Notes under the pieces: generated by a model
The model's database searches: none
What the model saw: the letters and a program-made list of their open reading frames with translations, nothing else
What the model was told of the DNA's origin: nothing
Translations under genes and position numbers: made by a program
From: an uncultured bacterium
GTDB taxonomy: Bacteria; Patescibacteriota; Minisyncoccia; Phycocordibacterales; PALSA-1337
Assembly: GCA_903864905.1 (NCBI GenBank)
Contig: CAIPHR010000054.1
Coordinates: forward strand, 1-46,346
Length of the DNA: 46,346 nt
Direction of reading: 5' to 3'
In this document: in pieces, positions 704-17,282 of the stretch
Layout of the letters: each line of letters starts with the position of its first letter
Numbering within the stretch: position 1 is the first letter of the stretch

Positions 704-774
704 GCGGGTATGGTTTAGTGGTAGAATGCGACCTTCCCAAGGTTGAGACGCGAGTTCGATTCTCGCTACCCGCA
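704..774 (+). tRNA. tRNA-Gly(CCC)
   Basis: Cloverleaf: GCGGGTA/TACCCGC acceptor stem, CGACC-TTCCCAA-GGTTG anticodon arm, GCGAG-TTCGATT-CTCGC T arm; CCA not encoded. Confidence 0.95.
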
Positions 775-947
775 CTATGATTCACGAAGACGCCTGAACG
801 GCGTCTGAGTGAAGCATCATAGAGACGAGGTGGCGAGAATCGAACGCCGGAACGTGCGAGCTCTAGCAAGAGCGAGCCGTGAGGCGGTGCCCAAGCCGAA
901 CGAGCGGGTAGCGAGTGAGAGCTGCGGGCGATTCTCGCTACCCGCAC
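757..947 (+). repeat. 19-bp direct repeat of the tRNA-Gly 3' end (757-775, 929-947) flanking a palindrome-rich mini-module
   Basis: cgattctcgctacccgcac occurs twice; inverted tRNA fragments at 833-845 and 904-915. Confidence 0.85.
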
Positions 948-2395
948 AGAGTTGTAAAATCAGCGTTTTTAGGTGTTTTTATCATCAGGTCGAAGGGACT
1001 TTTAAGGCTAGCTGTATAGATATTTTTCTCTTTGATCGAAAGGTTCCAACAGAGATTTTCTAGTACTTTACGTTTCTTGAAGTCATCACCGTCCAGAAAC
1101 TCATTTTTGGCTCTGCTTGCTTCTAGAAATACTTTTTTGGTCGGTTCCAACACGTTGACTGGTTGCTTGGATTTTGTTTCTTGGATCTGCTTTTCGATTG
1201 ATATTCTCTCGTTATGCAAAGCAAGAATTTTGGCATCGTATAAGTCCTTGGTAATTTGTTGAGCGAGGAAAGTATCGAGTAGCAGAGATTCTTTCGTCTT
1301 GAGCGAGTTTAGCTGGGTTTGGAGAGTGTTTAATATTTGCTCACTGTAAATATTATTGGAATGAGACTCCGACTTGGCAGCTTTGTACATCAATTCGATT
1401 TTTCTTTCTGAAAAAGCAATGCCATTCAGAATATCTGACACCTTGTCATACAGATAGATTTCTCTCATATAGCTTTTATGTTCATTGCAGCCTTCTCTAT
1501 TGCCGGTGCAGTAATAGTAATGATGGCCTTTCTTCAAAGAAGCCGTTAGAGCACAGCCGCAATTCTCGCACTTCATGAATCCACGGAGAGGGAAGAATAG
1601 TCGTTGTGGTCGTGGGTGTGATCGCCCGTTCATAACGTCTTGGGCTTTCTCGAATGTTTCCTTTGAGATGAGAGGTTGATGGATGCCTTGATAATATTTA
1701 CCTTCTCGCTCCATGATTCCTGTGTAAAAAATAGATGAGAGAATTCTTTGAATATAGCTTTTGTTTGCTATCTTGCCAGTTCTAGTTCTAAATCCTTCAT
1801 TGTAGAGAGTGTCCGATATTTCCTTGAAGCCATGAGAGCCGGTAAGATATAGCTCGAAAGCTCTTGGTATGTATTTTGCACGGGCAGGATCAATGATGAG
1901 AGTTCTGGTAGCCTTGTCGTTCAAGAATCCGAGAGGAGCACGATTTGGCCAACCTCCACGAGATAATTTTTCACGATTTCCTCTTTTGACATCGACGCTG
2001 AGATTCCTGCTGTATTGATTGGCCATGCCGAACTTTATAGCCATCAGCATGACATCATCACCTTGTTTGTGTACGCCTTCTGAAGTCTGTATTTCTTTAA
2101 TGACACCATTTTGAAGCATATCTATGATGAGTCCTCCGTCAATGAAGTTTCTGGCGAGACGGTCTAACTTCCAACAGACTATGCGATCAGCTTTACCTGA
2201 TTGAATAGTCTTCATCATCTCGTTGAATAATGGACGACCTGCTGATTTGGCGGACATGCTTTCCTTGAATGTTTTGGTGATGAGTAGGTTATGTTTTTCA
2301 GCAAGCGAAAGGGCTTCTCTTTCTTGTGAATCCAATGACAGAAGTTGTCTGTCTTCTGCTTCAGTAGATTTTCTGTAGTATGCGATGTATTTCAT
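938..2395 (-). CDS. Large serine recombinase (integrase 1), C-terminus truncated by the att junction
   Basis: Resolvase motifs YYRKS, ESMSAKSAGRPLF, KLDRLARN; recombinase domain; Zn-ribbon CENCG...YYYC...C; coiled coil; TAG stop lies in the tRNA-derived repeat. Confidence 0.93.
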   Translation of the reverse strand: MKYIAYYRKSTEAEDRQLLSLDSQEREALSLAEKHNLLITKTFKESMSAKSAGRPLFNEMMKTIQSGKADRIVCWKLDRLARNFIDGGLIIDMLQNGVIKEIQTSEGVHKQGDDVMLMAIKFGMANQYSRNLSVDVKRGNREKLSRGGWPNRAPLGFLNDKATRTLIIDPARAKYIPRAFELYLTGSHGFKEISDTLYNEGFRTRTGKIANKSYIQRILSSIFYTGIMEREGKYYQGIHQPLISKETFEKAQDVMNGRSHPRPQRLFFPLRGFMKCENCGCALTASLKKGHHYYYCTGNREGCNEHKSYMREIYLYDKVSDILNGIAFSERKIELMYKAAKSESHSNNIYSEQILNTLQTQLNSLKTKESLLLDTFLAQQITKDLYDAKILALHNERISIEKQIQETKSKQPVNVLEPTKKVFLEASRAKNEFLDGDDFKKRKVLENLCWNLSIKEKNIYTASLKSPFDLMIKTPKNADFTTLCG

Positions 2396-2406
2396 GATTG
2401 GTAATT

Positions 2407-3450
2407 TTATACCTGCTTCAGTGAATAATCAATCAAATCGAATCGAGAAGTTGGCGAAGGGATGATTAACTGCTCGATAATGTTCTGACTTGTCGGTGAT
2501 TTTTCAATGGAAATACCTATTCCAACTTGTTTCAAATCTTTTTTGTATCTATAAATCGTGCTCCTGTTCAAGCCTCCTCGCAGAAACATATTTTTCATCT
2601 CCTCATTGAAGTAATAATCCTTGTAGAATTGGTAAAGTCTGGTTGCTTTGGTCTTGGTGAAATTTTCGAATAGGATCTGCTTGATGTTTTCATCGGTCAT
2701 CGAGTTAGCGTTCACGTAAAAGAAGACTTTTTTCTCAAGAAAGTATTTAAGGACTTCAAATATCGTGTCGTCGTCGGTGACATCTTTCAGATATACCTTT
2801 TCGAGCTTGAAGAAATCTTGCAGATAGGTCTTCTTTAGATTGACTTCGAATCTGACTATTCGATCTGCCCACGCTTGCAAACTGTCCGCTCGATCAGGTT
2901 CAAGCTTTTTATAATCATGCGCCGTGAATTCAGCACCTTTGGCGTAAAACTTCACGGTATATGCACTTCCTTTGTACATGACTGAAGTATCGTAGGTGTA
3001 TTTCTTCTTTCTCGGATAATCAATTCTTCGTAGGAAGTCCATGGCGTACGTAGATTCATTTTGATTCTTGAAAAGCCAGTTGTAGCAAACATCAAGGCGA
3101 TATATTGGCCACAGGGAATAGTGAAGAAGTTTGTAATTCATATGGGTGCATAGTTCATCGTAAAGTCGCGCTATGATGTTTGGAAGCTCATGTGGGTAGA
3201 TCATTTCAACGTTGTTTCCTTTAGCGTATTTTGGGACGGAAAATTCAATGAAGAATCCTTGGGGAACATTTGTTGATTTTATAGCAACCGTCCTGTGATA
3301 CGAACCAAGCTCTATGTTGCTACTGAAGAATTCAAATTCCACCTTTCCGGTCTTTAGATCATCCTTACGAAACCGCATAAGGTTACCTTTTAACAGCTCA
3401 ATAAGGGTGCTGTCCTCCATCGGTATTAGAAATTTAATAGTGTCTATCAT
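2407..3450 (-). CDS. Phage/plasmid replication initiation protein, gene II/X (Rep_trans-like) family
   Basis: MIDTI start, RLDVCYN, VKFYAKGAE and RFEVNLK motifs, C-terminal HTH-like RSTIYRYKKDLKQVGI. Confidence 0.75.
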   Translation of the reverse strand: MIDTIKFLIPMEDSTLIELLKGNLMRFRKDDLKTGKVEFEFFSSNIELGSYHRTVAIKSTNVPQGFFIEFSVPKYAKGNNVEMIYPHELPNIIARLYDELCTHMNYKLLHYSLWPIYRLDVCYNWLFKNQNESTYAMDFLRRIDYPRKKKYTYDTSVMYKGSAYTVKFYAKGAEFTAHDYKKLEPDRADSLQAWADRIVRFEVNLKKTYLQDFFKLEKVYLKDVTDDDTIFEVLKYFLEKKVFFYVNANSMTDENIKQILFENFTKTKATRLYQFYKDYYFNEEMKNMFLRGGLNRSTIYRYKKDLKQVGIGISIEKSPTSQNIIEQLIIPSPTSRFDLIDYSLKQV

Positions 3451-3468
3451 GGTGCATATTGCAACGTA

Positions 3469-3567
3469 CCCTAGGTGTTACTAACACCTAGGGTTAAGTC
3501 ACCATGATTAGTGTCGACCGGAAGCGTCCCGCCCGCCGCTCTAGCGGTCGGGACGGGACGCCCTTCC
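3469..3567. other. Candidate double-strand origin hairpins of element 1
   Basis: Perfect 12-bp-arm palindrome ccctaggtgtta-c-taacacctaggg (3469-3493) and GC-rich hairpin 3520-3567 directly upstream of rep. Confidence 0.5.
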
Positions 3568-3707
3568 GCAAACGCCAAAAACAAACCAGCCATTGAGTGT
3601 AAATACTCATTAGCTTGTTCTCTGGACAATTCCAAACCATCTTCCTCTTTGAAGCATTGGATTGTCCGTTCTATTAAATTCTTGCTGAAGTTTTTCGATT
3701 CTTCCAT
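3471..3707 (-). CDS. Small conserved protein upstream of rep (paralogue of 13731-13946)
   Basis: FSKNLIERTIQCFKEEDGLELSREQANEYLHSMAGLFLAFA aligns with FSQNLIQDCIKSFKEENGVDISAETAIEYLDSFARLYLTFA. Confidence 0.75.
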   Translation of the reverse strand: MEESKNFSKNLIERTIQCFKEEDGLELSREQANEYLHSMAGLFLAFAEGRPVPTARAAGGTLPVDTNHGDLTLGVSNT

Positions 3708-3969
3708 ACCTTTTTAGGTACAGAAAACAGCTTGAAACAAAACAACATAAATAACCTCATAAATAGTGAGGTATAGTTGCTTTATTATCTAGCTGGAATC
3801 GGAGATCGGCGTGCCTTACCCGTTCCACAGATCTAGAACACCACGTAAATGCTGGTGTGCGACTGTGCGAGTTTCAAGGTGCGCCTGTACTGGTTACTAT
3901 TATCCTACTTTAGAAAACGAAGTCAATATTTACGATGTGTAAAAGTTATTTCAAAATAACAAAATGTGG

Positions 3970-4284
3970 CGCCTCCGCATTCTCCACCCCTTTCGAATCA
4001 CAGGAAAGTCATGCGCGGACGCTTGAGCGAGAGTACTTGGTCAGAAAGAGTTACGGGCGTGTAACCTCCGCCCTTATGACGACTGTGGCGCGCCTTTAAC
4101 GCGCATACCAGTATGGCTTCGCGCCTTTCCCCCCAATCGCTTCGCGATAGCGGGGGCACTATCGCCATACAGATTATGCGCTAGGCGCGAACAAGACGCG
4201 CAGTGACGGGCGGAGGTACCACGCCCTTATCTGCCAAGCGTCCCGCGCATCACTTTCCCGAAAGGGGTGGAGAATGCGGAGGCG
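3970..4284. other. 315-bp foldback (candidate single-strand origin or structured RNA)
   Basis: Perfect 26-bp terminal inverted repeat (3970-3995 / 4259-4284) with nested imperfect stems. Confidence 0.75.
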
Positions 4285-4311
4285 AAAAGATTATGATATT
4301 ATAGTTTCAAT

Positions 4312-5103
4312 ATGAAAAATATATCAGAAAATAGGAATTCCTACGACGCCAGATTTGCCGACACTCTCGGTGGTGAAGAATACGACGATTTGTTAATTGC
4401 CCTTGAGTTTTATGATGAATTTCAAGCAGAGACAGGTAAGGCTCTGAAAGAATATATTCAGGCTCGTTGTTCAAACCAAAAAGAGATTCGAGTATTGGAA
4501 GCAGGTCCCGGAACTGGAATAACGACATTTCAAATATTGAAGGCTGACCCTAGAGTGTTAGTAGTCTCTGTCGACAATGAAAAAAAGATGCTTGATGCTG
4601 TCAGAAATCGTTTCGCTGAAGTATCAGAATTGAAGGGAAGGGCCGATTTCATATTATCAGACATTCTTAAATTTCTAGAGTCATGTCCTGATGAAAGATT
4701 CGACGCGTTTGCGTCGGTTTACACTTTGCATAACTTTACGACAGATTTTCGAAAGAAGGTCATTGGGTTGATTGCAAAAAAACTCAAGAAAGGAGGTATA
4801 TTCATCAATGGAGACAAATATGCCGAGGCTGAAGATCCACACAAGAAAGATCTGGCTGCAGAGATTATGAATTATGACAAGTTTGACATTGCTGCTCTTA
4901 AGGCAGAAAAGGAAGGAAATATGAAACGAGCTGAACACTTGCGCACAATAAAGAAAGAATGGATCGCACACACATGGGAAGATGAGAAGAATAAAATCAC
5001 GGCTGAGGAACAGAATGAGATATTCAACGAGCTCGGCTTTATAGATGTGAAATGGATGAGGAGATTCGACCTTGTGACGACGGTGAGTGCGATCAAGAAG
5101 TAA
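4312..5103 (+). CDS. Class I SAM-dependent methyltransferase
   Basis: VLEAGPGTG motif I; FASVYTLHN; GGIFINGD. Confidence 0.85.
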   Translation: MKNISENRNSYDARFADTLGGEEYDDLLIALEFYDEFQAETGKALKEYIQARCSNQKEIRVLEAGPGTGITTFQILKADPRVLVVSVDNEKKMLDAVRNRFAEVSELKGRADFILSDILKFLESCPDERFDAFASVYTLHNFTTDFRKKVIGLIAKKLKKGGIFINGDKYAEAEDPHKKDLAAEIMNYDKFDIAALKAEKEGNMKRAEHLRTIKKEWIAHTWEDEKNKITAEEQNEIFNELGFIDVKWMRRFDLVTTVSAIKK

Positions 5104-5172
5104 AAGTTCCGATGTTTTAATCAAAAAATCCCGTCGCTGTCGACGGGACCGGGACGATACTAGAGTAAACGA

Positions 5173-5889
5173 TCATTCCGTGATGATTCGGGCCGAGAAC
5201 AACGCTTCCATGCGCCTGCGGAAGGTAAACCGGCAAGTCACATGGTTTAGTACGTCAACGTTCCGAAGCAAGTCGATCTGATCCTTCTCGGTGAAGCGGA
5301 TCTTCTCGTCCAGAAGATAGTGGACTGTCCACTTCAGCCGGTAAGCGGGATCGTCGTTGAAGACGTCGAAATGCAGAAGCTGATCGGCCAGGTCGGCGAG
5401 ATGCTTGGCTTCATTATTGCGAGCGTATTTATCGGCGTTGATGAACCAACCGCCGCGAATTCTGACGACGTTGCAGATGCCTTTGAATAGCATGCGCCTC
5501 TGCTCGGGTGTCAGATTGTGGATCATGAATGCGGAGACGACAGCATCATAATTGTTTGATATCGCCTTGCAGACGTATTCAGTCGCATCCGTATGCATCC
5601 ATGTTATGTTCTTGGAACGGACGCGTTTGCGAGCCTCGATAATCATCCGGCGCGAGGAATCGATTGCCACAAGATGACAGTTGGGCACATGCTTCATGAT
5701 CTTCTCAGTTGTGAGCCCCGTGCCACACCCGAGTTCCAATACTTGCGGATCCTTTATTCCCCTGAGCTTGGCTGCAAGGGTGGTTGCCAGCAGTTCCTCG
5801 ATTTCGTTGTACCATGGCATCGCTTGTTCAAAGCGATCGTAGTTTTTTCCCGCAAGGGGACCTGTTTTGAAGTCAGTTTGTTTGTTCAT
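5173..5889 (-). CDS. Class I SAM-dependent methyltransferase (paralogue of the convergent neighbour)
   Basis: VLELGCGTG, AVVSAFMIHN, GGWFINADKYA; start placed at MNKQ (5889). Confidence 0.85.
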   Translation of the reverse strand: MNKQTDFKTGPLAGKNYDRFEQAMPWYNEIEELLATTLAAKLRGIKDPQVLELGCGTGLTTEKIMKHVPNCHLVAIDSSRRMIIEARKRVRSKNITWMHTDATEYVCKAISNNYDAVVSAFMIHNLTPEQRRMLFKGICNVVRIRGGWFINADKYARNNEAKHLADLADQLLHFDVFNDDPAYRLKWTVHYLLDEKIRFTEKDQIDLLRNVDVLNHVTCRFTFRRRMEALFSARIITE

Positions 5890-6048
5890 TATCAATGTTT
5901 CTCCTTCATAATGAATAATACATGGATTTATGGTTGTGTCAATAAGTGAGTTGACAAGGAAGGTCAAATCTGCTATACTATAAGGAGAATTCGGAATAGG
6001 TCCAAAATACATTAACAATCAACCATTTGGAACAATTGGAGTCAAATT

Positions 6049-6840
6049 ATGAAGAGAATTCTGTGTCTTTTGGCGTGTCTGTCTGTAATCACTCTGCGCG
6101 CCTCTGACGACGCCCACTCCGACATTGAGACCGCCAAAATGGCGCCCAGTAGCGGATTGTCAGGTTTCGTTTCGACGGGTGTCGAGTCGAAGTACATCGG
6201 CCGTATCGGGGCCATCTTCTCCGATAAGCCGATCTCGGTCAACATTGTCGAGATTGACTACAAGGACTTCTACCTTGGCACATGGAATGCTACCGGCCTT
6301 ACGCCGCGCACCTATGGCACAACCTACGCCGATGAATGGGATGCCTACGGCGGTTGGGCTCACGACTTCGGTCCTGTGAAGGTCGACTTGTCCGGGTCTT
6401 ACTTCGGTCTTGCTCAACTCGATCAGTCGAAGGATGATATGTGGATCGCTGAGCAAGAAGTCAGCTTTCCAAAGTTTCCATTCGTCCAGCCCTATGTGCG
6501 GTCCAGGTACTTCGGCTCAGTTGCCGATGCTTGGAAGCCAGGTTGGTTCGTCTTCGGCGGTGTACGCAAGAGCATTGAGTTGGGTCATGGTGCGGCAAAG
6601 CGCCCATACATGATCAATCTCGATCTCTCGACAGCGTACTCCTTCGGAGCCCTGCACGATTATCACGGCTTTGTCTACGGCCGGCTCGGTGCCAGCCTCG
6701 ACATTCCGCTTTCAAAACGCTTCACCTTCAACCCGAACATGGTTTACCAAGTTCCGGTTCCAGGCGAACGCAGTGATCCAAATGGTTTTACCGACCGCAA
6801 CGAGTTTGTGTTCGGTGCAACACTCAAATGGATCTTTTGA
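6049..6840 (+). CDS. Secreted, outer-membrane beta-barrel-like protein
   Basis: Signal peptide, alternating aromatic/Gly strands, C-terminal FGATLKWIF ending in Phe. Confidence 0.55.
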   Translation: MKRILCLLACLSVITLRASDDAHSDIETAKMAPSSGLSGFVSTGVESKYIGRIGAIFSDKPISVNIVEIDYKDFYLGTWNATGLTPRTYGTTYADEWDAYGGWAHDFGPVKVDLSGSYFGLAQLDQSKDDMWIAEQEVSFPKFPFVQPYVRSRYFGSVADAWKPGWFVFGGVRKSIELGHGAAKRPYMINLDLSTAYSFGALHDYHGFVYGRLGASLDIPLSKRFTFNPNMVYQVPVPGERSDPNGFTDRNEFVFGATLKWIF

Positions 6841-6858
6841 CAGGTGTCAATTTACGCG

Positions 6859-6885
6859 AGGCGCATGAGCAATCATGCGCCTTTC
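6859..6885 (+). terminator. Intrinsic terminator
   Basis: aggcgcatga-gcaa-tcatgcgcct followed by T residues. Confidence 0.6.
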
Positions 6886-6963
6886 TGCATATATTAGTAG
6901 ATATTCTGTGCCCTTGATTTATTTCAAAAAAAATTATAAAATAGTCCCAATAATGTTCATTGG

Positions 6964-7182
6964 AATTCCTATTCTATAGTGCCTGCCGTGCAATACAAGG
7001 TATCACCTAAAGGGTCGTCGGTAGTAATGATAACCTGTTCACGCAGTTGTCGATAATGTCCGAGCTGCTATCGTTGAACGTTTACCCCCAACAAAGTCGA
7101 AAGACTTGAGCGGATAACTTCTTTAAGTGCACCGGACGCCAAGTGTATTGCAGCCTGAATCATGACCTATAGAATGGGAATT
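6964..7182 (+). ncRNA. Candidate structured ncRNA (~220 nt)
   Basis: 16-bp closing stem with one G-U pair, inner tgcaatac/gtattgca stem, GAAA-capped hairpin, TTGATT...TAAAAT promoter-like sequence upstream, no long ORF. Confidence 0.45.
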
Positions 7183-7209
7183 TTAGTGAGTGTTATTTAT
7201 TGCTATAGC

Positions 7210-7237
7210 GGTTCCAACTTCGTACCACAACCCGCAC
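7210..7237 (+). repeat. att-like junction site G1
   Basis: ggttccaacttcgtaccacaacccgcac. Confidence 0.9.
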
Positions 7238-7338
7238 AACCCAAGGCTGATGCTGAGGCATGGCTTAATTGAGCCATGTTACACATTTGGTAGGAGTCAA
7301 ATGTCGATTCTCGGATTCATCAAATACGAGATATGTTC

Positions 7339-9504
7339 CTACAGATCCAGAGATGCTGTATCCAAGTCTCCTTTTTGGTCTTCAATAACGAAATCGTTTT
7401 TGCGATAGTAAGCCGATCGTTTTTTCCACATTTTTTCGAGCACCGGTACCTTTTCATCTCGATAGTCATAGATCTTTTTGCTCCCACCATCTCTCCTAAT
7501 GCGACCGACATATTGAGATAGCTTTCCATGAAATGATACGGGGAATGCCAAAAATAGTACCTCGAGATTTTCAATGTCCGTACCTTCGCCAAGTATCTGT
7601 CCAGTTGTAATCAAGATGGAAAACCTGCCACTCTTTATCTTTTGCAAAGCAAACTTCTTTTGCCTCGCTGATAAATCTCCAGAAAAAGCTATAGTCTCAA
7701 AATCCTTTCTCAAATATGCCTGTAGCATTAACACATGCTCTTTTCTTTCTGTAAGGATAAGGCATTTTTTACCAGATCGCGCTTCGTGAACAACATCGGA
7801 AACAATAAGAGCATTTCTGCGACTATCATTTGATATGACTTTTGATACCAGGGGAAAATGACGGGGAGTCGTTCCGAAAGGTATTTCTATGTCTGTTTGG
7901 TGAACAATGACAACATCAATCGTTGCATTACTGCCTTCGTTCCGTCGTTCTGTAATCTCTTCTTTCGTTACCGTATGAATAATGGGTCCTAGATATGCCG
8001 AGATTAGCTTTTGATCGTTATATTTTCTATCTGGCGTTGCAGTCAGTCCGAACAGATATTTGCCTTTGAACTTTGAGATGACGCTTCTGAACATCTTTGC
8101 CGGCATGTGATGACACTCGTCAATGATTACTGTTCCGAATTTTTCAGATATTCTGCCCCAATCGTTCATTCGTGCGAGTGTTTGGACCATAGCAACAGTT
8201 ATGGGGAGTGCTTCATTTTTCTTCGTCGAACATATTTGACCAATCTTAGTCCTGGGAATACCAAGTGTTGATTCTATGCGGTCTAGCCACTGATCATATA
8301 TTTGTCTTCGGTGAGTGAGAATGATTGCAGGCTGTTTCTTTTGGGCTATAAGTCCGAGTCCCATAATCGTCTTTCCTGCTCCTGCGGGCGCGATTAGGAC
8401 TCCTTGGGTTTCTTTTGCGAAAGACTCCAACGCTTTCTCTTGGTATGGAAATAGTGTTGTCTTCAGCACAAATTTTACTGGTTCAGCTACGATACACTTA
8501 TCAATGACTGAGTAATGAATGCCCTTTGTATCTAACCACTTGCTCAAATCAAGTATAAATCCACGCGGTACAGAGACAAATTCACCCTCCACTTCGATAG
8601 TATTGATAAACCTCGGAGATCCATATATAGGCAAGCCTGCTCTTTCCTTAACAATATACTCGATGTTCAATAGATTGAGCTCCTCGCGCAAGAATGATAC
8701 AAGGGATGGCAAAAGTTCACCCCTGTAAATCTGGATGGTATTAGAGATTATGATATTTATCACACCTTTACCTTTCTTCAGTCGTTTTCTGATTCTCTTG
8801 TCGGCTGGAACAGGCGGGGGTGAAGCCAACTTTTCATGCAACTCATCCAATTCTTTTGAAGTCATCAGTCGTATGTCTTTCAAGAATGACCATTGATCGT
8901 CAATGACATGAAAATCATTTTCCGGATCAACGAATACACTATTGCCTTCCTTTCTCGATGTACCCTGAAGTGGCAGAGCGATAAGATTGCCAAGACCTTT
9001 ACCTGATAGATAATCCTGGTTAGGGAACAGGCGGTCAAAGCTCTCGTTTTTCTCAAATTCACCAATAGCATTTGCTTCTCGTAGAAGCGCGATAAAGATT
9101 TTCCGACTTTTGTAAGCGGAATAAGGTTCAGAGAAAAATAGCCATGCATGTGCGCCATTACCAGAGCGAGATCTCTCAACCGCAATCGGTACGTCATATT
9201 TTTTGCAAACAGCACAAAACGCACGCACTGATTCTTTCCAGCCCTCGCCGTCGAAATCGGCCGCGATGAAATGTGAAGCGTTGTCTTGTGACAACGGATA
9301 TAGTCCCAAAACGACACTTCCTAATAAGTGCTTCTCTGCCCATTCGGCCGTAAATGGTTCGTATGCTTTCTTCCTATAATCTGTATACACGGGAGCATAT
9401 CCAGAGATCGAGCCGTCCCATTTCTGCCATCTACGCGCAATAACGTCGCTTCTTCCTTTGAATCGAGTTAGAAATATATTCACCCTTTCTTCCCGAGAAA
9501 TCAT
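7339..9504 (-). CDS. Primase-like N-terminal domain fused to SF2 (DEAD/DEAH, type III restriction-like) helicase
   Basis: DFD...ERSRSGNGAHAWLFF and GLGNLIALPLQG (AEP/TOTE-like); Walker A APAGAGKT, DECHH, GLTATP, QYVGRIRR. Confidence 0.85.
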   Translation of the reverse strand: MISREERVNIFLTRFKGRSDVIARRWQKWDGSISGYAPVYTDYRKKAYEPFTAEWAEKHLLGSVVLGLYPLSQDNASHFIAADFDGEGWKESVRAFCAVCKKYDVPIAVERSRSGNGAHAWLFFSEPYSAYKSRKIFIALLREANAIGEFEKNESFDRLFPNQDYLSGKGLGNLIALPLQGTSRKEGNSVFVDPENDFHVIDDQWSFLKDIRLMTSKELDELHEKLASPPPVPADKRIRKRLKKGKGVINIIISNTIQIYRGELLPSLVSFLREELNLLNIEYIVKERAGLPIYGSPRFINTIEVEGEFVSVPRGFILDLSKWLDTKGIHYSVIDKCIVAEPVKFVLKTTLFPYQEKALESFAKETQGVLIAPAGAGKTIMGLGLIAQKKQPAIILTHRRQIYDQWLDRIESTLGIPRTKIGQICSTKKNEALPITVAMVQTLARMNDWGRISEKFGTVIIDECHHMPAKMFRSVISKFKGKYLFGLTATPDRKYNDQKLISAYLGPIIHTVTKEEITERRNEGSNATIDVVIVHQTDIEIPFGTTPRHFPLVSKVISNDSRRNALIVSDVVHEARSGKKCLILTERKEHVLMLQAYLRKDFETIAFSGDLSARQKKFALQKIKSGRFSILITTGQILGEGTDIENLEVLFLAFPVSFHGKLSQYVGRIRRDGGSKKIYDYRDEKVPVLEKMWKKRSAYYRKNDFVIEDQKGDLDTASLDL

Positions 9505-9560
9505 AAGCGGATATTACCCCTTACTTCAATTCATTACAAGAACATGAATGTGTAATCAAA

Positions 9561-10616
9561 TTACTTCGACTTTACATACCTCGTACTCCTTCCTAGACCA
9601 ATTCGTTCGATCAGTTTCAGCGATACGAGACGCGAGAAAGCTTGTTTAATAGTAACCTGCGGGATATGAACTAACCTAGCACTTACATCCATCACAGAGA
9701 GTGATTCCGTGCCATCAAAAAGCGTATATATCTCCGTCTGTCGTGGAGAAAGCAACTTGGTCGGATCATCGTTATCCATCAATTCTTTTGCCTTGGTTGC
9801 TTGTATCAGTAAAGCGTCAAGAAAGAAATTGACCCACGCGGTTAGATCTTCATTTTCTGTTTTATGAAGTTTTTGAGTCCGTCTCAAAGATGAATAGTAG
9901 TCATCCTTTCTTTCTTCGATGATTTCTTCTAATGAAACATATGGGGTGTATTCGTATCCAGCTTGCAGAAGCAACAGATTAGTGAGCGCACGAGAAAGTC
10001 GTCCGTTACCATCTGAAAATGGATGAATAGCGAGAAATTCAAAGATGAAATTAGCGATGATAAGCAACGGGTGCAATTTTTTTTCAGATATTGCTATGTT
10101 CGTCCAGTAGATGACATCGTCCATCTCTTTCTTTGTCAGCCATGCTTCGGTTGGTTTGAATATCACTGCTTGCTCACCTTGTCTATTCATAGCAACAACA
10201 AGATTTTCTCTAGTTTTGTATTTTCCTTTATGGAGATCATCCTTCCTTGAATAATGCAGTAGGATCTCATGGAATGAAAGGACAGTGGACTCAGAGAGTT
10301 TAAACTTTTTCCAGTTGTCGAACACTCTACCCAATAGATTGGCATATCCGGCCACTTCTTCTTCATCGCGATTCTCGGGAGGGTTTGACTTAAATGCGTT
10401 CAAAAAACGCTCAACTTCCTCATCTGTCATATTTGCACCCTCGATACGTGTAGAAGCACCCGTACTAGTAATAATGACGGATTTCTTTAGTCGACTGAGT
10501 ATCTGTGGATTGATATTCAAACCTCCACGCCAAAGACCCTTGAGCTCATCAATTTTGGTGATCTTTCCGAGGATTTCGGAAGTAAGTGGTATTCTTTTTT
10601 CATATCTTTCTTTCAT
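9561..10616 (-). CDS. Fic family protein with C-terminal winged helix
   Basis: HPFSDGNGRLSR Fic motif; STRIEG inhibitory-helix-like motif. Confidence 0.92.
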   Translation of the reverse strand: MKERYEKRIPLTSEILGKITKIDELKGLWRGGLNINPQILSRLKKSVIITSTGASTRIEGANMTDEEVERFLNAFKSNPPENRDEEEVAGYANLLGRVFDNWKKFKLSESTVLSFHEILLHYSRKDDLHKGKYKTRENLVVAMNRQGEQAVIFKPTEAWLTKKEMDDVIYWTNIAISEKKLHPLLIIANFIFEFLAIHPFSDGNGRLSRALTNLLLLQAGYEYTPYVSLEEIIEERKDDYYSSLRRTQKLHKTENEDLTAWVNFFLDALLIQATKAKELMDNDDPTKLLSPRQTEIYTLFDGTESLSVMDVSARLVHIPQVTIKQAFSRLVSLKLIERIGLGRSTRYVKSK

Positions 10617-10710
10617 AATATATTCATATAAATGTTATATATCCGATTGTATACGATTATATCCGAAAAGTCAAGCTTACTAGATTAATGCCATTAGTGA
10701 TGCTAATGCA

Positions 10711-10737
10711 GTTCCAACTTCGTACCACAACCCGCAC
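10711..10737 (+). repeat. att-like junction site G2
   Basis: gttccaacttcgtaccacaacccgcac. Confidence 0.9.
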
Positions 10738-10819
10738 AATTATATATGGCGTTCAGTTATACGAATATGTCGTACAACTGAGAGTTGTAAATTCATCGAT
10801 TTTGTGCAATAATTTGGAC

Positions 10820-11107
10820 ATGTCAATAGCAGAAATACAGAAAAAAATACATCCAGTTCTCAAGTCATATGGCGTTACCTATGCGGGTATTTTTGGCTCT
10901 ATCTCACGTGGTGAGGATCGACCAGACAGTGATGTTGATATCCTAGTTAAGCTCGGTAAACCGATGGGAATGTTTTCTTATATGAAATTGATCGGAGCTA
11001 TTGAAGGTCTCTTGGGGCGTAAAGTTGACATGGTTACAGAGCAAAGCTTGAGTAAATTTGTTCGACCATATGTAATGCCAGAATTAAAGACTATTTATGA
11101 AGGATGA
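10820..11107 (+). CDS. MNT nucleotidyltransferase antitoxin (copy 1)
   Basis: FGSISRGEDRPDSDVDILV; LLGRKVDMVT; start placed at MSIAE. Confidence 0.9.
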   Translation: MSIAEIQKKIHPVLKSYGVTYAGIFGSISRGEDRPDSDVDILVKLGKPMGMFSYMKLIGAIEGLLGRKVDMVTEQSLSKFVRPYVMPELKTIYEG

Positions 11108-11420
11108 GAAGGTCTACATAGAACAGATGTTGGATTCGGTCTCGAAGATCGAAGCGTTCACTCATGGCATGAAGAGGGAAGATTTCATGAATGATTCGAA
11201 AACGCAAAGTGCCGTCATCATGCAGTTGACTGTGATAGGTGAATTGGTCAAGAAGCTTTCTTCGAAGACAAAGGAGTCGAGTGATATACCATGGAAAGAG
11301 ATTGCCGGATTTAGAGATCGAGCGATTCATCACTATTTTGGAATGGATCTGAATGTGATCTGGGATACTGTGGTCTTAGATGTACCAGTTCTGAAGGTGG
11401 CACTTATGAAGTTGTCATAG
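11097..11420 (+). CDS. HEPN/DUF86 RNase toxin (copy 1)
   Basis: IPWKEIAGFRDRAIHHY (RxxxxH); overlaps the MNT gene. Confidence 0.9.
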   Translation: MKDEKVYIEQMLDSVSKIEAFTHGMKREDFMNDSKTQSAVIMQLTVIGELVKKLSSKTKESSDIPWKEIAGFRDRAIHHYFGMDLNVIWDTVVLDVPVLKVALMKLS

Positions 11421-12899
11421 GGTGGTTCCAACTTCGTACCACAACCCGCACTGAGTAAAAATATCACCATTTTTTGGAGCTTTTGCCAGTATGTCATAAG
11501 GACTTCTGTAGCTCACCTGAGCGATTTTTCTGTCTTTGACTGAAAGGTTCCAAAGTAATTCAGAGACGATATTTCGTTTTTCTTCATCCGGTGCCTTCAA
11601 GTAATCTGCAATGGCTCTACTGCCTTGCATAAATATCTTTTTGATCGGTTCCAAGGTAGAAACGGCCTGTTTGGATTTCATGTCAGCGATCTGTTTTTCC
11701 AGAGAAATGCGGTTGTTATGAATTTCCAAGATCTTAACATCGTAAATTTCTTTTGAGATTTGATCAGCTAGAAATGTATCGAGTAACTTGGATTCTTTCG
11801 TCTTGAGCGATTCTAGCTGTTTTACAAGGTTGTCTAATGAGCGATTGAGATATTCGGAATCGGCATCGATCCTTTCTTTGGCGGCACGATACATCAGATC
11901 GATTTTCTGTTCGCTGAATTGAAGCGGGCTTAATATTTCAGCTACTTTTTCATCGAGGTAAGTTTCTCGCATATATTTGGTATGTTCCTGACAGTTTCCC
12001 TTGGCATTGGTGCAGTAATAATACTGATGACCTTTTTTGAGTGATGCCGTTAATGAGCAACCGCAATTTTCGCATTTCAAGAATCCTCGTAATGGGAAGA
12101 AGTGAGTTTGTGGCCTTGGATGCAGTTTGCCTTGTAAGACCAGTTGAGCTTTGTCGAATAGGTCCTTGCTAATAAGTGGCTCATGGTTGCCCGGATAGTA
12201 TTTACCATCGCGGAGCATGAGACCGGAATAGAATGGATTGGTTATGATCCTGTGAATGTGACCACGATAGATTTTCTTGCCACAAGTGTTTCGCAGACCT
12301 TCGTTGTAGAGAATATTGGCGATCTCTGTGAAGCCGTGAATGCCGGCGGCGTATAGTTCAAACATGCGTAGAACGTATTTTGATCTTGAATGGTCGATTG
12401 TAATTGAGGCGGTAGCCTTGTCGTTTAGATATCCGAATGGGGCATGATTAGGCCAGCCACCTTTTTCTAGTTTGGCTCGATTGCCACGCTTTACATTCAC
12501 ACTCAGATCTCTGCTGAATTGATTAGCCATACCAAATTGCATAGCCATAATAAAGGCGCTTTCGTTTGGTAAATGTGTGGCTTCATAAGTCCGGATCTCT
12601 TTGATGACGCCTTTCTGAAGCATATCCATGATGAGTCCACCGTCTAGGAAATTACGAGCTAAACGATCTAGCTTCCAACAGAGAATTGCATCTGCTTTTC
12701 CGGTTGTAATCATTTGAATGACTTCATTGAATATGGGACGACCGGCTTCTTTGGCTGTACGGCTTTCTTTGAAGACTTTGATGACGTTCAGATTGGACTT
12801 GCCGGCTATATCGAGTAGCTCTTTTTCCTGTGAATCGAGTGACAGTACTTGCTTGTCTTCTGAATCGGTTGATTTTCTGCAGTAGAGAATATATTTCAT
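11415..12899 (-). CDS. Large serine recombinase (integrase 2)
   Basis: YCRKS, KLDRLARN, CENCG Zn ribbon; close paralogue of integrase 1; reads through site G3. Confidence 0.93.
   Translation of the reverse strand: MKYILYCRKSTDSEDKQVLSLDSQEKELLDIAGKSNLNVIKVFKESRTAKEAGRPIFNEVIQMITTGKADAILCWKLDRLARNFLDGGLIMDMLQKGVIKEIRTYEATHLPNESAFIMAMQFGMANQFSRDLSVNVKRGNRAKLEKGGWPNHAPFGYLNDKATASITIDHSRSKYVLRMFELYAAGIHGFTEIANILYNEGLRNTCGKKIYRGHIHRIITNPFYSGLMLRDGKYYPGNHEPLISKDLFDKAQLVLQGKLHPRPQTHFFPLRGFLKCENCGCSLTASLKKGHQYYYCTNAKGNCQEHTKYMRETYLDEKVAEILSPLQFSEQKIDLMYRAAKERIDADSEYLNRSLDNLVKQLESLKTKESKLLDTFLADQISKEIYDVKILEIHNNRISLEKQIADMKSKQAVSTLEPIKKIFMQGSRAIADYLKAPDEEKRNIVSELLWNLSVKDRKIAQVSYRSPYDILAKAPKNGDIFTQCGLWYEVGTTL
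11424..11451 (+). repeat. att-like junction site G3 (encodes the C-terminus of integrase 2)
   Basis: ggttccaacttcgtaccacaacccgcac, read as CGLWYEVGT on the minus strand. Confidence 0.92.
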
Positions 12900-12986
12900 G
12901 AATTTAATTAGTTATGGTTGATAATGAGATTAAAGTTGGTGACATTTTACTCCTCGAAAATGTTTTGCACAAATTTTGTAATATTT

Positions 12987-13724
12987 TCATGGTGATTTCT
13001 GATATGTTTTCTTGGTAATCTCTCCCATGAATATGCTTGGTCGTGTCCATTCTTTGATCGGCTTTTCTTTTTCATAACGGCGAGCCAATTCTTTTGCCAT
13101 ATCACCCCGGATGACGATCTCCTTTGGAAAGCTGTGCGATATCCGTAGCATTCTCATGGCGTTGAAGAGGATTTGGTTGCTCCCTTTGGTAATGTACTTG
13201 CTGATGTAATATGCCAAGCGTCCAGATCCATTAGTTTTTGTCGCATCCATAAAGCCCTCTCCCCATAATTTAGCGAGGGTACGATCTTTTCGTTCATCTC
13301 CATGCGAAATACACCGTTTACCTTGGCGCGTATCACCGAGAGACAACGGCACGTTAAAGAGTAAGCCATGAAAGTGGATCCTTCCTCTTGGGGAGAGTTC
13401 GGGAATAAATAATGACTGCGCAAGAGGATATTTAGCTCGCAACCGCACTTGGAAACTGCGTAAGGAATTATTTGCATAGGAGGCATCTGATGCGTCGCCG
13501 TGAAAGGTGAGTGTGACCAGAAGCGGGCATCCATACTCTTCAAGAGCAGAAAACACCCTCCGCACACATATCTGCCTTGTCCTTCGAATATTATCGGGTC
13601 GCCTAAGGCCGTATATGGGATTCCTTCGTCTCGCAAAGTATACGCGCACTTTGCGCGGGTGCGGTTCCTTCTCAATCTTGGTGATTTCGACGATTTCTCC
13701 ATATTTCTTGTAAATGAAGTGCAT
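12987..13724 (-). CDS. HUH-type rolling-circle replication initiator
   Basis: Motif I LVTLTF, motif II RGRIHFHGLL, W-G-x-G-F, motif III YYISKYITK. Confidence 0.85.
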   Translation of the reverse strand: MHFIYKKYGEIVEITKIEKEPHPRKVRVYFARRRNPIYGLRRPDNIRRTRQICVRRVFSALEEYGCPLLVTLTFHGDASDASYANNSLRSFQVRLRAKYPLAQSLFIPELSPRGRIHFHGLLFNVPLSLGDTRQGKRCISHGDERKDRTLAKLWGEGFMDATKTNGSGRLAYYISKYITKGSNQILFNAMRMLRISHSFPKEIVIRGDMAKELARRYEKEKPIKEWTRPSIFMGEITKKTYQKSP

Positions 13725-13730
13725 AGTGAG

Positions 13731-13946
13731 TTACTTACAACTATGAGGGGATATCAAGTCAGGCGAAGCGCCGCCCGGAGCTTCGCATACCGGGACGGCG
13801 CCTTCTATCCTCGCAAAGGTTAAATACAACCGAGCGAATGAGTCCAGATATTCAATTGCCGTTTCAGCAGAAATGTCGACCCCATTTTCCTCTTTGAAGC
13901 TTTTGATGCAGTCTTGTATTAAGTTTTGCGAAAAAGTTAATGGCAT
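13731..13946 (-). CDS. Small conserved protein upstream of rep
   Basis: Homologous to 3471-3707 and in the same position. Confidence 0.75.
   Translation of the reverse strand: MPLTFSQNLIQDCIKSFKEENGVDISAETAIEYLDSFARLYLTFARIEGAVPVCEAPGGASPDLISPHSCK
13751..13805 (-). other. Candidate double-strand origin of element 2
   Basis: ACTTGATAT on the minus strand (13751-13759) matches the phiX174/pC194-type CTTGATA nick motif; adjacent GC hairpin 13765-13805. Confidence 0.6.
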
Positions 13947-14013
13947 GAAAAAACCCGATATTGGGTCGGGTTCATTATCATTCCTTGGCGTTACGGGATT
14001 GTACGGGTACGGC

Positions 14014-14928
14014 TTACAGATACTCTTTGTTTACATGCGCATAACCGGTTTTACCGGATTTAATGAACAAGAAATTGCTCACGCCAGCCTGTTTGCTCAC
14101 TTTGGTGTTAACATCGTTGCAGGCTCTGTACATTGACCGCCAACCTTTGTCATCATTCTGGAACTTATCGTTCAGAATATCAGTGTAAAACGATTGGGCG
14201 TCCAAGCCTTCGTTATTTCCAAAGATATATTCAAGGACGAAATGAGAATTTGGCTTATCGTTCTTTTGCTTTATTTTCACTACTTTGCCACCGATCTTCA
14301 ATTCACTTCTATCTGAGTCAAAATCATCGCGATTAACCTTTAACTTTGCTTCATTGGCAGGCTGCATCGTTTCAGTAGATTCCAATTCAATCGGAGCTTT
14401 CAAAACTAAAGATTCCGGTGGCTTCGTCATGTTATCAAGCAATCCCTTAACCAAAGCCGTGTGCAATTTTTCCATGTAATCGGCAACGTCTCCCATTGAA
14501 AATGAATATCGAACTCTAATCCAGACCACCTTGAGAAATTGCCATGCAGTGCCATCGTTGCTGTACGCCAGAGCTTGACCGGTCGTACAATCTTCTGAGG
14601 AATGATCTGGTGATTCCCAATACACTTTCATGGGAGTAAATATGTTTCGCTTGAGAATGTCGTAACAGCCGGAAAGCGAATGCTTCTTGATCTTGTATAC
14701 CACTTTTTCCTTGTCTTTTGGAGCCAACTTACCTTCCCAATCAATGATCATTATCCTACCTTCAACATCCTTCTTGTCCTTGTCGATTAGATCTTGAACA
14801 TCCTTCCGGTTATCAATTAGATCGAAGTATTCATAAACCTTCTTAAAAGAGCTGTAAAGTCTCTTGTTATTTTTGACTTCAAGAAATTCATTGTATTTTA
14901 GATTAAGCTGTGAGATCACGAGATCCAT
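14014..14928 (-). CDS. Hypothetical protein, possible C-terminal winged-helix DNA-binding domain
   Basis: 304-aa ORF; C-terminal WRSMYRACNDVNTKV...G.A.VN pattern. Confidence 0.55.
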   Translation of the reverse strand: MDLVISQLNLKYNEFLEVKNNKRLYSSFKKVYEYFDLIDNRKDVQDLIDKDKKDVEGRIMIIDWEGKLAPKDKEKVVYKIKKHSLSGCYDILKRNIFTPMKVYWESPDHSSEDCTTGQALAYSNDGTAWQFLKVVWIRVRYSFSMGDVADYMEKLHTALVKGLLDNMTKPPESLVLKAPIELESTETMQPANEAKLKVNRDDFDSDRSELKIGGKVVKIKQKNDKPNSHFVLEYIFGNNEGLDAQSFYTDILNDKFQNDDKGWRSMYRACNDVNTKVSKQAGVSNFLFIKSGKTGYAHVNKEYL

Positions 14929-14977
14929 ACCAATAGTTTACCATTATCAAAACAGCAGTAAAAACGAGTGAAAGTGG

Positions 14978-15273
14978 CGCCACCCACCCACTGCCTTTTC
15001 CGTGCAGGAATGCGTGAGTCGCGACTAACCTTTGTGGCTAAAGAATGACTATGGAAGCGGTGATGTCGCTTCAAAGAGAGCCTGTGGCGCGCCTTTCGCA
15101 CACATCCGTATGTTTCCGCGCATTCCCCCAGTTGCTAGTCGCAACAGGGGTGCGCTCTCAACATACCGATGTGTGCGAGGCGCGAATTACACTCCGTGAG
15201 TGAAGCGACACACACCGCTTCCTCTGCGCGACATCACGCATACCTGCACTCCAAAGTCAGTCGGAGGGTGGCG
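14978..15273. other. 296-bp foldback homologous to 3970-4284
   Basis: Nested inverted repeats; shares gtggcgcc...ggcgaa ends and internal ctgtggcgcgccttt. Confidence 0.75.
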
Positions 15274-16113: not shown

Positions 16114-16214
16114 GTAAATACTATTCGGATGTCATGCAAAGATCTAGGGTTGTTGAGATTTATGACGATGTTATAATATGCATGAATTATTATTCACTTA
16201 TAATTTGTAAATAT

Positions 16215-16640: not shown

Positions 16641-16758
16641 AACAAAAATATTTCATACTATGAAGTGTGGTCTTCATAAAGTCGCACCTGCCATTAGTAT
16701 GTACCAATGGAGTCGAGACAGGACAATATTCAGTTTCGTTATATGATAGAATAATTCC

Positions 16759-17162: not shown

Positions 17163-17195
17163 AAAAAGGTTCCAACATTGTCCCAGACGGCGCAC
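17163..17195 (+). repeat. att-like junction site, variant type shared with the tRNA-Leu array
   Basis: aaaaaggttccaacattgtcccagacggcgcac; reverse complement of the sites at 34074, 36129 and 38108. Confidence 0.85.
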
Positions 17196-17282
17196 ATTAA
17201 AATTCGAGCTAATTCGGAATAGCGCACTAATTATATTCGTCGTCAATATTAATTTATTATTTTGGTGTGAGAAAATTGGAGC

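Follow-up and report, generated by a model that had tools for sequence, protein, structure and literature searches.

Two capsid-less elements with rolling-circle initiators of different folds at a tRNA-Gly gene of a Patescibacteria genome: probable members of a family of small integrative replicons

The tRNA-Gly(CCC) locus and its two complete elements

The DNA investigated here, a contig of 46,346 nt (hereafter the window; CAIPHR010000054.1 of assembly GCA_903864905.1), belongs to the genome of an uncultured bacterium of the Patescibacteriota (Minisyncoccia, Phycocordibacterales, PALSA-1337) that comprises 1.04 Mb in 95 contigs and is 97% complete. Adjacent to a tRNA-Gly(CCC) gene (704..775, plus strand; ARAGORN, Rfam tRNA 68.3 bits) it harbors two elements of 6290 bp (element 1, 948-7237) and 5744 bp (element 2, 11452-17195), measured between attachment-site-like (att-like) repeats, in agreement with the size of ~6 kb given in a preliminary description of the locus. 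According to the open reading frame (ORF) map, both elements indeed share the described order of an integrase gene, a gene for a replication initiator (Rep), a small ORF and a foldback, all read toward the integrase, followed by cargo genes beyond the foldback; scans of the window ORFs against Pfam and PHROGs revealed no capsid, Zot or conjugation family, as had been stated for capsid, packaging ATPase and conjugation genes. The designation of this arrangement as "one chassis" is appropriate for the integrase, the small ORF and the hairpin formed by the foldback, which are common to both elements; it overlooks an additional ORF of 304 aa in element 2 (14014..14928, minus strand), which is missing from element 1 and has counterparts of ~300 aa in most other copies. 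In the following, other contigs of this genome, other genomes and related loci are denoted by C, G and L numbers, respectively.

The integrases int1 (938..2395, minus strand, 485 aa) and int2 (11415..12899, minus strand, 494 aa) are paralogous, as proposed, with 59% identity over 485 aa; they contain resolvase, recombinase and zinc-ribbon domains (PF00239, PF07508 and PF13408), all above cut-off in both proteins, and represent large serine recombinases, a feature that had escaped notice together with their position at tRNA 3' ends. Residues R8, K9 and S10 are invariant among the 25 integrases aligned. The best NCBIfam matches of int1 were CcrA, CcrB and CcrC (92, 80 and 68 bits versus cut-offs of 700-900). 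The stop codon of int1 lies within a tRNA-like repeat, whereas the last nine codons of int2 (LWYEVGTTL) are read from a 28-nt repeat, the arm, that terminates the preceding segment; in reverse orientation this arm encodes CGLWYEVGT in frame with the integrase. Because the tail of int2 originates from the arm of the preceding segment, the att site of the element overlaps the 3' end of its own integrase gene.

The same relationship is found outside the window. In this genome, integrase 3' ends overlap an antisense tRNA on C41 (Gln), C7 (Leu), C6 (Leu) and C65 (Gln), and the respective tails read DSN, the antisense of the T loop; among the related loci, an antisense tRNA overlaps or abuts the 3' end of the complete integrase in 25 of 30 cases from genomes and in 15 of 20 from metagenomes. 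Across the family, tRNAs for Ile, Leu, Tyr, Gln, Glu, Ser and Pro are among the targets. At ten loci, a stretch of 10-22 nt from the tRNA 3' end was found repeated, in nine of them 5-8 kb downstream, i.e. at the expected other end of the element; at L078, a 22-nt tRNA-Tyr repeat is located only 166 nt downstream.

The proposed integrative nature is further supported by an empty site in G417, a genome of the same genus: on a single contig, a DivIC-like gene and tRNA-Gly(CCC) are followed after 58 nt by the orthologue of the 78-aa ORF 22642-22878, at which the chromosome resumes in the window, and by PAP2. Since tRNA-Gly and this orthologue adjoin in G417, the window from 776 to ~22590 (21.8 kb) is an insertion. 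The last 8 nt of the tRNA gene (ACCCGCAC) recur at every segment boundary of this insertion, with seven exact copies in the window versus 0.30 expected; one of these is positioned exactly at the int1 stop codon, and five others form the end of the 28-nt arm GGTTCCAACTTCGTACCACAACCCGCAC, which starts at 7210, 10710, 11424, 19682 and 21652 (five copies with at most three mismatches, none expected); at 17167 and 22568 the arm is present in degenerate form. Element 1 ends on the right with the arm at 7210..7237 (plus strand); the right end of element 2 is taken to be the degenerate arm GGTTCCAACATTGTCCCAGACGGCGCAC (17167..17195, plus strand), the assignment of element ends to degenerate arms being our own reading of its sequence and of contigs that diverge at 17165 and 17195. 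The region 776-22590 is thus a tandem array in which the two complete elements are accompanied by five or more cassettes without integrase, each segment closing in a 28-nt arm; this single array and its defense cassettes were likewise absent from the preliminary description. To the right of each arm, the sequence is not conserved among the integrase-less segments. The same grammar was observed in relatives: G409 contains a 1.6-kb insert ending in an arm, and G418 a lone Bro-N gene between two arms. An origin of the 28-nt arm as a displaced tRNA 3' end was considered and rejected, as no T-arm complementarity extends beyond ACCCGCAC.

Between the tRNA gene and element 1 lies a spacer of 172 bp (776..947), which contains an inverted T-arm-like piece (829-845) and ends in a truncated copy of tRNA-Gly (~904-947) that retains only the acceptor and the T arm. 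It is this shortened second copy of the tRNA 3' part, ~170 nt downstream, that int1 abuts rather than the full tRNA; comparable cases are L078 and L144/L145.

Reads were available from four runs of one lake water metagenome study, which yielded short contigs at a depth of ~2-5. Neither a 7237-948 or 17195-11452 join nor an empty site was present among the contigs of the four runs, which at this depth is evidence neither for nor against such forms. Single contigs left the window exactly at the arm ends 7239, 17165 and 17195 (one contig per departure), which suggests different cassette neighbors in the population; a joint between 19757 and 10798 can be attributed to the second copy of the MNT/HepT pair in the array (see below).

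Replication initiators, small protein and giant hairpin

The Rep of element 1 (rep1, 2407..3450, minus strand) is a rolling-circle initiator of the gpII/X family: it matched PF05144 (64 bits, cut-off 21.7; E 2.3e-17), TIGR01629 rep_II_X (39.2 bits, cut-off 29) and phrog_702 (1.8e-29 over residues 1-320), and its residue Y169 is invariant in 25 sequences. Its AlphaFold model (pLDDT 88.5) is predicted to adopt a Rep_trans-like fold; the best Foldseek match was 4cwe_A (E 1.6e-6, probability 1.00) at a moderate TM of 0.44/0.54, and all six matches at E <= 0.001 were of the RepD type (Rep_trans initiators RepDE, RepSTK1). The Rep of element 2 (rep2, 12987..13724, minus strand) is an HUH initiator with the motifs LLVTLTF, HFHGLLF and YYISKYITKG; it matched phrog_3419 and PF23343 (44.5 bits, cut-off 27.8), and the HFH and YxxKY columns (H134, H136, Y179, K182, Y183) are invariant in seven Reps. 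PF23343 was above cut-off also in the four Reps of this genome that were scanned singly and in all six detected in the whole-genome family search, whereas matches of the HUH Reps to the RepSA profile were weak and local. Profile searches accordingly place both proteins in replication-initiator families and bear out their description as a gII/X (Rep_trans-like) and an HUH initiator, respectively. That the two are unrelated, as had been claimed, is supported by the lack of pairwise similarity (best E 0.6) and by a probability of 0.1% in the comparison of the two family profiles; based on the family matches, this profile comparison and the model fold of Rep1, the distinction of a Rep_trans-like from an HUH initiator holds. 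Sequence searches of the PDB with both Reps gave matches at chance level only.

The postulated exchangeability of the replication module was examined at 28 loci around small ORFs in genomes of the same genus. The arrangement of small ORF, HUH Rep and integrase was present in 14 of them; two (G405, G844) showed a gpII-type Rep in the same slot, matching rep1 at E ~1e-206 to 1e-215, two an ORF of ~350 aa with a weak HUH match only, and four no Rep at all, the small ORF leading straight to the integrase, while at three loci the small ORF and the HUH Rep were on opposite strands and three loci were cut or partial. The Rep-less arrangement was seen e.g. at L183, L193, L194 and L195 of the same genus, where an ORF of ~300 aa and the small ORF directly precede the integrase. 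Together, these arrangements support a view of the Rep gene as an exchangeable module on a constant core of integrase, small protein and hairpin. An additional hairpin with a 12-bp stem and a 3-nt loop (3468..3494), located between the end of the small ORF and the start of rep1, is kept as a 27-nt self-complementary match in both other gpII-type copies (L188 and L197); it is a candidate nick site or origin and may have traveled with the gpII Rep.

Beyond the genus, homologs of Rep1 formed 185 clusters, some of them named Patescibacteria or Taylorbacteria by source. At E <= 1e-20, Rep1 was found in none of 400 other genomes of the same class, and gpII-type Reps were present in 4 of 400 other genomes of the phylum sample. 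At four gpII loci from three other genomes, the Rep adjoins a more distant serine recombinase, with a tRNA at the end of the latter in three of the four; at the fourth, the contig ends after an integrase fragment, so that a tRNA would be out of view. None of these four gpII loci of the phylum sample has the small ORF.

The small ORFs of element 1 (3471..3707, minus strand, 78 aa) and element 2 (13731..13946, minus strand, 71 aa) are homologous (52% identity over 60 aa, E 2e-17), in line with the paralogy noted before. The modeled protein of element 1 consists of two helices (residues 9-23 and 29-49) and a disordered tail. When 1.8 billion proteins were searched with a profile built from 27 small ORFs, 765 cluster representatives were retrieved at E <= 0.001, the best 150 of which were all short (45-138 aa); no family of Pfam, PHROGs or NCBIfam covers the small ORFs, and the ESM Atlas yielded unnamed clusters only for the small ORF as well as for the 304-aa ORF. 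The latter belongs to a conserved family without match to any known family; a ~300-aa homolog precedes the small ORF on C82, C13 and C78. Gene neighborhoods collected with the small ORF as bait confirmed its linkage to integrase and Rep. The small ORF persists in gpII-type and Rep-less copies, and element 1 retains it despite its different Rep; it is adjacent in 41 of 43 loci with an integrase of the close clade versus 2 of 10 with a distant integrase, a contrast that overstates the link because related loci are not independent. According to these distributions, the small protein appears to follow the integrase clade and not the Rep. The predicted complex of integrase and small protein scored 0.58 (best of three controls 0.00), with at least 49% of contacts agreeing between runs and a partner pLDDT of at least 59; the applied mark is reached by 58 of 80 solved complexes and by 2 of 110 mismatched pairs, of which only 7 of the 80 and both mismatches fall at <=0.60, so that the model lends weak support. 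The small protein might perhaps serve as a recombination directionality factor, for which we consider it a tentative candidate.

Upstream of the operon, the foldbacks reported for both elements proved to be real: they constitute imperfect hairpins of ~315-320 nt (hairpin 1, ~315 nt, 3970..4284, folding best on the minus strand, i.e. in rep sense; hairpin 2, ~14974..15272, minus strand) with z values of -15.4 and -12.2, respectively, and none of 100 shuffles was as good. Homology connects the two hairpins with each other and with further copies on C13, C78, C21 and C23. An nhmmer profile detected the hairpin upstream of the operon in 37 of 85 loci, the rep-sense match being far stronger in all but one of the 37; the exception, one locus represented twice (L087, L148), has an extra match on the minus strand only, ~4 kb further upstream. 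RNAalifold analysis of 22 full copies gave 66 consensus pairs, 39 of them with compensatory changes on both sides, and the rep-sense strand was the more stable one in 22 of 22 copies, by 8-30 kcal/mol. Covariation and strand bias show that a single-stranded form of the rep-sense strand, be it DNA or RNA, is under selection.

A near-perfect hairpin of ~320 nt beside a rolling-circle Rep has the classical look of a single-strand origin, and structure, covariation and strand bias make the giant hairpin a candidate for this function. Strand bias and G-U pairs would, on the other hand, suit a structured non-coding RNA transcribed in rep direction, i.e. an operon regulator or leader, as well as single-stranded DNA (ssDNA), and a promoter-like site (10/12) is located upstream of hairpin 1 on the minus strand (4327-4298). 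We regard the RNA as unlikely: no Rfam family matched at E up to 0.1 (the Rfam scan at E <= 0.01 returned tRNA only), and the better-placed promoter-like sites, albeit weak consensus matches, lie between hairpin and operon in both elements, a position that weakly favors a role as DNA, as does the textbook appearance of a single-strand origin near a Rep.

Distribution, kinship with filamentous phages and probable way of life

The family is well represented in the genome investigated: int1 had 13 matches, five of which besides int1 itself are at least 44% identical over at least 400 residues, and seven small-ORF copies as well as six PF23343 Reps in addition to rep1 are present. On each of the four contigs C82, C41, C7 and C13, an HUH Rep is encoded between small ORF and integrase. 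A further element on C85 (165-4580) contains an HUH Rep followed by a split serine recombinase (1070-1702 and 3795-4568) with an insert between the pieces, the last of which overlaps a tRNA-Glu.

In the same genus, the distribution is patchy, with one to six copies in 20 of 92 other genomes. A search with a profile of four HUH Reps yielded 35 loci from species-representative genomes, labeled as Saccharibacteria, Paceibacterota, Taylorbacteria, Nomurabacteria, Zambryskiibacteria and Parcubacteria metagenome-assembled genomes, and 37 loci from metagenomes; these are kin to one another, so that the counts do not represent independent events. Across the 72 Patescibacteria loci, the core of small ORF, Rep, integrase and tRNA recurs: where enough downstream sequence was available, a serine recombinase adjoins the HUH Rep at 32 of 33 genome and 20 of 21 metagenome loci, and the small ORF lies directly upstream of the Rep at 25 of 33 and 26 of 32, respectively. 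In an even sample of 400 genomes of the phylum, a strong small-ORF match was obtained only in G376 and G347, both with integrase, HUH Rep and small ORF. Of 43 phylum genomes (this one included) with a small-ORF match at E <= 0.01, only these two were kept as real; most other matches concerned residues 4-30 inside frames of ~640 aa and were discarded as spurious, and G187 and G298 had no Rep nearby. Some Reps of this genome are near-identical (branch lengths 0.02-0.05) to those of assemblies labeled Taylorbacteria or "uncultured bacterium", which may reflect either close kin or recent transfer between lineages.

A relationship that the preliminary description did not mention is the one to true inoviruses, with which the elements have HUH Reps in common. 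Seven IMG/VR contigs encode related HUH Reps; five of these possess a Zot gene beside an ORF of ~540-570 aa, and one of the seven is circular (4958 nt, terminal overlap of 121 nt). On account of the viral ORFs of ~550 aa, descent of the HUH Rep from a microvirus was considered but dropped, as the contigs carry Zot and no Pfam family matched these ORFs. L127 (IMG/VR, 13.5 kb) is an integrated inovirus-like element in which genes for a D12 methyltransferase, a protein of 537 aa and Zot are followed by those for an HUH Rep, a small-ORF-like frame (8e-8) and a large serine recombinase; it may stand midway between phages and capsid-less elements. The maximum-likelihood tree calculated for 47 Reps did not unite the Zot-bearing rows in one group, at least three changes being forced by starred branches, and some capsid-less elements were sister to inoviruses, e.g. 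L109 (small ORF, Rep, integrase, tRNA) to L126/L127 with support 100/97; placement details are uncertain, since long branches were flagged. Rep1 as a single query found nothing in viral contigs.

RS1 and TLC of Vibrio are satellites that are packaged by a helper. If the elements were likewise satellites of filamentous phages, retaining only Rep, origin, integrase and a packaging hairpin, with a helper inovirus providing the coat and Zot proteins for the packaging of their ssDNA, the account would differ from that of self-contained replicons solely in the route of spread. The interleaving of the HUH Reps with those of Zot-bearing inoviruses (L109), the integrated inovirus L127 with the same kind of Rep and a serine recombinase, and a large strand-specific hairpin that resembles the expected packaging signal would all suit a satellite, and inoviruses have been reported from genomes of the Candidate Phyla Radiation, where they were found through Zot (PMC6813254). 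A helper is nevertheless not evident: Zot and pIII-like queries gave no match among the ORFs of this 97%-complete genome that were searched and PF05707 is absent from the whole of it, although a helper could still be exogenous, and of 41 related loci (35 of them from genome records) only L106, which lacks an integrase, was positive for both. In addition, the hairpin model matched neither the seven viral contigs nor L106, so that no shared packaging signal is visible. In the elements themselves, neither Zot (on any window ORF scanned) nor a pIII-like gene was detected, so that they do not qualify as inoviruses, small coat proteins not having been searched systematically. Packaging by a helper is therefore judged to be rather improbable, if the strongest of the competing accounts. 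As the elements are Zot-less, a Zot-based survey of inoviruses would miss them.

Transfer by conjugation is far less probable still. Integrative mobilizable elements of the streptococcal type would employ the Rep as relaxase at an origin of transfer, here the hairpin, and would borrow the pore of a conjugative element; reviews indeed describe elements with an integrase and a Rep-related relaxase, some with serine integrases, and tandem accretion (PMC5704250, PMC5357655). The scanned ORFs of the window, to which this search was confined, did not match any family of coupling proteins, FtsK-like proteins or type IV secretion components, and the nearest Rep relatives of known lifestyle are those of inoviruses, not of plasmids; the Rep could nonetheless double as a relaxase.

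The remaining segments of the array bear on the question whether the elements move at all. The cargo of element 1 (4312..6840) consists of two SAM methyltransferases (4312-5103, plus; 5173-6018, minus) and a 263-aa ORF without family (6049-6840, plus), that of element 2 (15337..17094, plus) of an alpha/beta hydrolase, a 168-aa ORF and a 111-aa membrane ORF. Segment S2 (7238..10737, 3.5 kb, no integrase; arm 10710-10737) encodes on the minus strand a TOTE-type primase-helicase (7339-9504; PrimPol 1.3e-59) and a Fic/SoFic protein (9561-10616; SoFic 1.9e-43); the former is a 721-aa fusion of an archaeo-eukaryotic primase domain (6.7e-73) with a ResIII/DEAD helicase and adjoins the SoFic-like protein. 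S3 (10738..11451, 0.7 kb) carries an MNT/HepT pair (~10760-11107 and 11097-11420, plus), and its terminal arm (11424-11451) directly abuts int2, an attP-like junction. S4b (17196..19709, plus, 2.5 kb; arm 19682-19709) contains a Bro-N gene (17283-18116), a gene for a PsbP-like protein and a 112-aa ORF, with a PDC-S13 match of 1.4e-106. S5 (19710..21679, plus, 2.0 kb) comprises a 92-aa ORF, a 301-aa ORF and a short NYN-like fragment, and S6 (21680..22590, plus, 0.9 kb; degenerate arm 22568-22590) a second MNT/HepT pair; contigs of one of the two MNT/HepT cassettes (10738-11451, 21680-22590) map to the other at 95%. Beyond the array, the release factor 2 gene (30509-31903) is present as overlapping frames (30509-30805/30591-30920, 30917-31903), which looks like the usual programmed +1 frameshift.

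Such an assemblage could be a fixed genomic island, i.e. the decayed remnants of phages or plasmids that now serve as an immobile depot of defense genes, with Reps and hairpins as relics. At least five segments without integrase, two degenerate arms, the split recombinase of the C85 element, the defense-like cargo and the failure to find a circular form would be in accordance with decay. Decay should, however, not have left all core ORFs intact in both elements, nor the pairs of the hairpin maintained by compensatory change; the seven small-ORF copies in this genome, up to six in others of the genus and the patchy occurrence there (20/92), the empty site in G417, the near-identical Reps in other assemblies and the contigs diverging exactly at the arm ends 7239 and 17165/17195 speak against a fixed island as well. 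Immobility is for these reasons regarded as quite unlikely.

S5 is flanked by a 76-nt direct duplication (19682-19757 / 21652-21727) that comprises the arm and 48 nt with a terminator-like hairpin. This duplication fits a single crossover of a circle with an identical site, unlike conservative insertion by a serine recombinase. In the integrase-less cassettes, the arm directly abuts the cargo and no integrase remnant is present. Ccr enzymes are said to recombine between arm-bearing sites, and recombination of this kind is one possibility for the origin of the cassettes, by analogy.

In summary of the genes, repeats and relatives described, elements 1 and 2 probably belong to a family of capsid-less integrative replicons of the rolling-circle type, 5-8 kb in size, that extends across the Patescibacteria and is related to filamentous phages. 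The large serine recombinase of the element would insert a circular double-stranded form into a specific tRNA gene, in the present case tRNA-Gly(CCC), at its 3' end, the att site of the element overlapping the 3' end of the integrase gene. Excision, possibly aided by the conserved ~75-aa protein acting on the integrase, would be followed by nicking of one strand by the Rep, which drives rolling-circle replication; the displaced strand would be the rep-sense strand and carry the ~320-nt hairpin, which primes synthesis of the complementary strand as a single-strand origin and might also act as a packaging signal. The Rep gene would be swapped as a module on the constant core, and the 21.8-kb array would have arisen through successive insertions at the same tRNA, combined with the loss of parts or their independent movement.

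Several observations weigh against this interpretation. Serine integrases normally recombine attP with attB only; the tandem array and the remnant-free cassettes are therefore not explained by the textbook reaction. A terminal overlap indicative of a circle was present in none of the 37 metagenome loci, and the four Rep-less copies of the genus imply that replication is dispensable for persistence. Rep2 is very divergent (terminal branch of 5.85 in the Rep tree), and neither a nick site nor a double-strand origin was recognized for the HUH Reps. A structured RNA would explain the hairpin just as well, as strand bias and covariation cannot distinguish RNA from ssDNA; to these points the kinship of the loci behind the small-protein contrast and the weakness of the complex prediction have to be added.

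Taken one step further, all observations might be joined to a phylum-wide group of hitherto undescribed capsid-less descendants of filamentous phages, whose Ccr-like recombinases (with att sites overlapping their own 3' ends) insert at many tRNAs and shuffle arm-tagged, integrase-less defense cassettes into integron-like arrays; the elements would be copied as single strands by means of a swappable Rep and a universal 320-nt origin hairpin and spread as naked ssDNA or double-stranded DNA by natural competence. This combination as a whole is doubtful; if it were true, the elements would be a main vehicle of gene flow and defense exchange in the group.

Even on the narrower interpretation as integrative replicons, the elements are of relevance to a phylum with genomes of ~1 Mb, mostly uncultured members and few known mobile elements or genetic tools: this genome alone accommodates seven copies of the family that carry a Rep, and the family brings defense genes to tRNA loci across several candidate lineages. 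If active, they would provide serine integrases with ready-made tRNA targets in these bacteria and small replicons with an origin hairpin usable as vectors; they would furthermore constitute a natural case of one core accepting initiators of two unrelated folds, a second example, after the staphylococcal cassette chromosome (SCC) and the Dehalococcoides islands, of cassette arrays built by serine recombinases, and capsid-less elements linked to inoviruses by repeated Rep exchange.

Comparison with known systems

No description of this family was encountered in the literature searched, although such loci could be listed in supplements of papers. Each ingredient is known; what appears to be new is that, in Patescibacteria, a constant core is combined with two folds of Rep, with many different tRNAs as targets and with cassette arrays.

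Among the systems compared, small tRNA-targeting elements of streamlined genomes are represented by the tycheposons of Prochlorococcus, which have an inward-facing integrase, an adjoining small replication module and cargo and build islands with tandem junctions (10.1101/2020.12.28.424599). In contrast to the elements described here, 910 of 937 tycheposons are reported to use tyrosine recombinases, and their replication modules are given as primases, helicases or polymerases instead of rolling-circle Reps (10.1101/2020.12.28.424599). [quoted passage not shown] The weak, local matches of the HUH Reps to the RepSA profile are a further point of contact; AICEs differ in the FtsK-like Tra gene, none of which was seen here, in the Rep families and in the host phylum. 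The filamentous phage phiRSM of Ralstonia shares the combination of a rolling-circle Rep with a serine recombinase inserting at a tRNA 3' end, a mode of insertion described as rare in PMC3218068, whose authors knew phiRSM1 as the sole case besides the Mycobacterium AICEs. Its recombinase is described as small and resolvase-like (reference cited in PMC3218068), unlike the large serine recombinases of the window, and phiRSM is a complete virus with coat and Zot genes, whereas structural genes were not found in the elements here.

The closest parallels to the array concern SCC and the Dehalococcoides ssrA islands. As in SCC, a large serine recombinase is located at one end (with CcrA/CcrB/CcrC as best NCBIfam matches of int1), a single housekeeping gene is targeted at its 3' end, the units are delimited by short direct repeats, and capsid and conjugation genes are lacking. 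SCC differs in its target (rlmH versus tRNA-Gly), its host phylum and its primase-helicase pair in place of rolling-circle Reps; the one recombinase here, moreover, lies far below the Ccr equivalog cut-offs (92 versus 700 bits). To our knowledge, neither the giant hairpin nor the small ORF has a counterpart in SCC. Tandem arrays including recombinase-less units have been described as SCC composite islands (PMC3900703), and replication genes beside the recombinase are reported as well (PMC7581432). The ssrA islands carry a CcrB-like serine recombinase by attL, are inserted in the T-loop region of a tRNA-like gene (tmRNA), occur in tandem and are bounded by a repeat of the gene 3' end with a conserved non-matching motif just upstream, and some are without integration module, which was read as accretion (PMC3146451). 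As described there, they encode two serine recombinases and lack a replication gene (PMC3146451); they are much larger and contain no Rep and no hairpin. By analogy, the array at tRNA-Gly(CCC) resembles the accretion in both SCC composite islands and Dehalococcoides ssrA islands.

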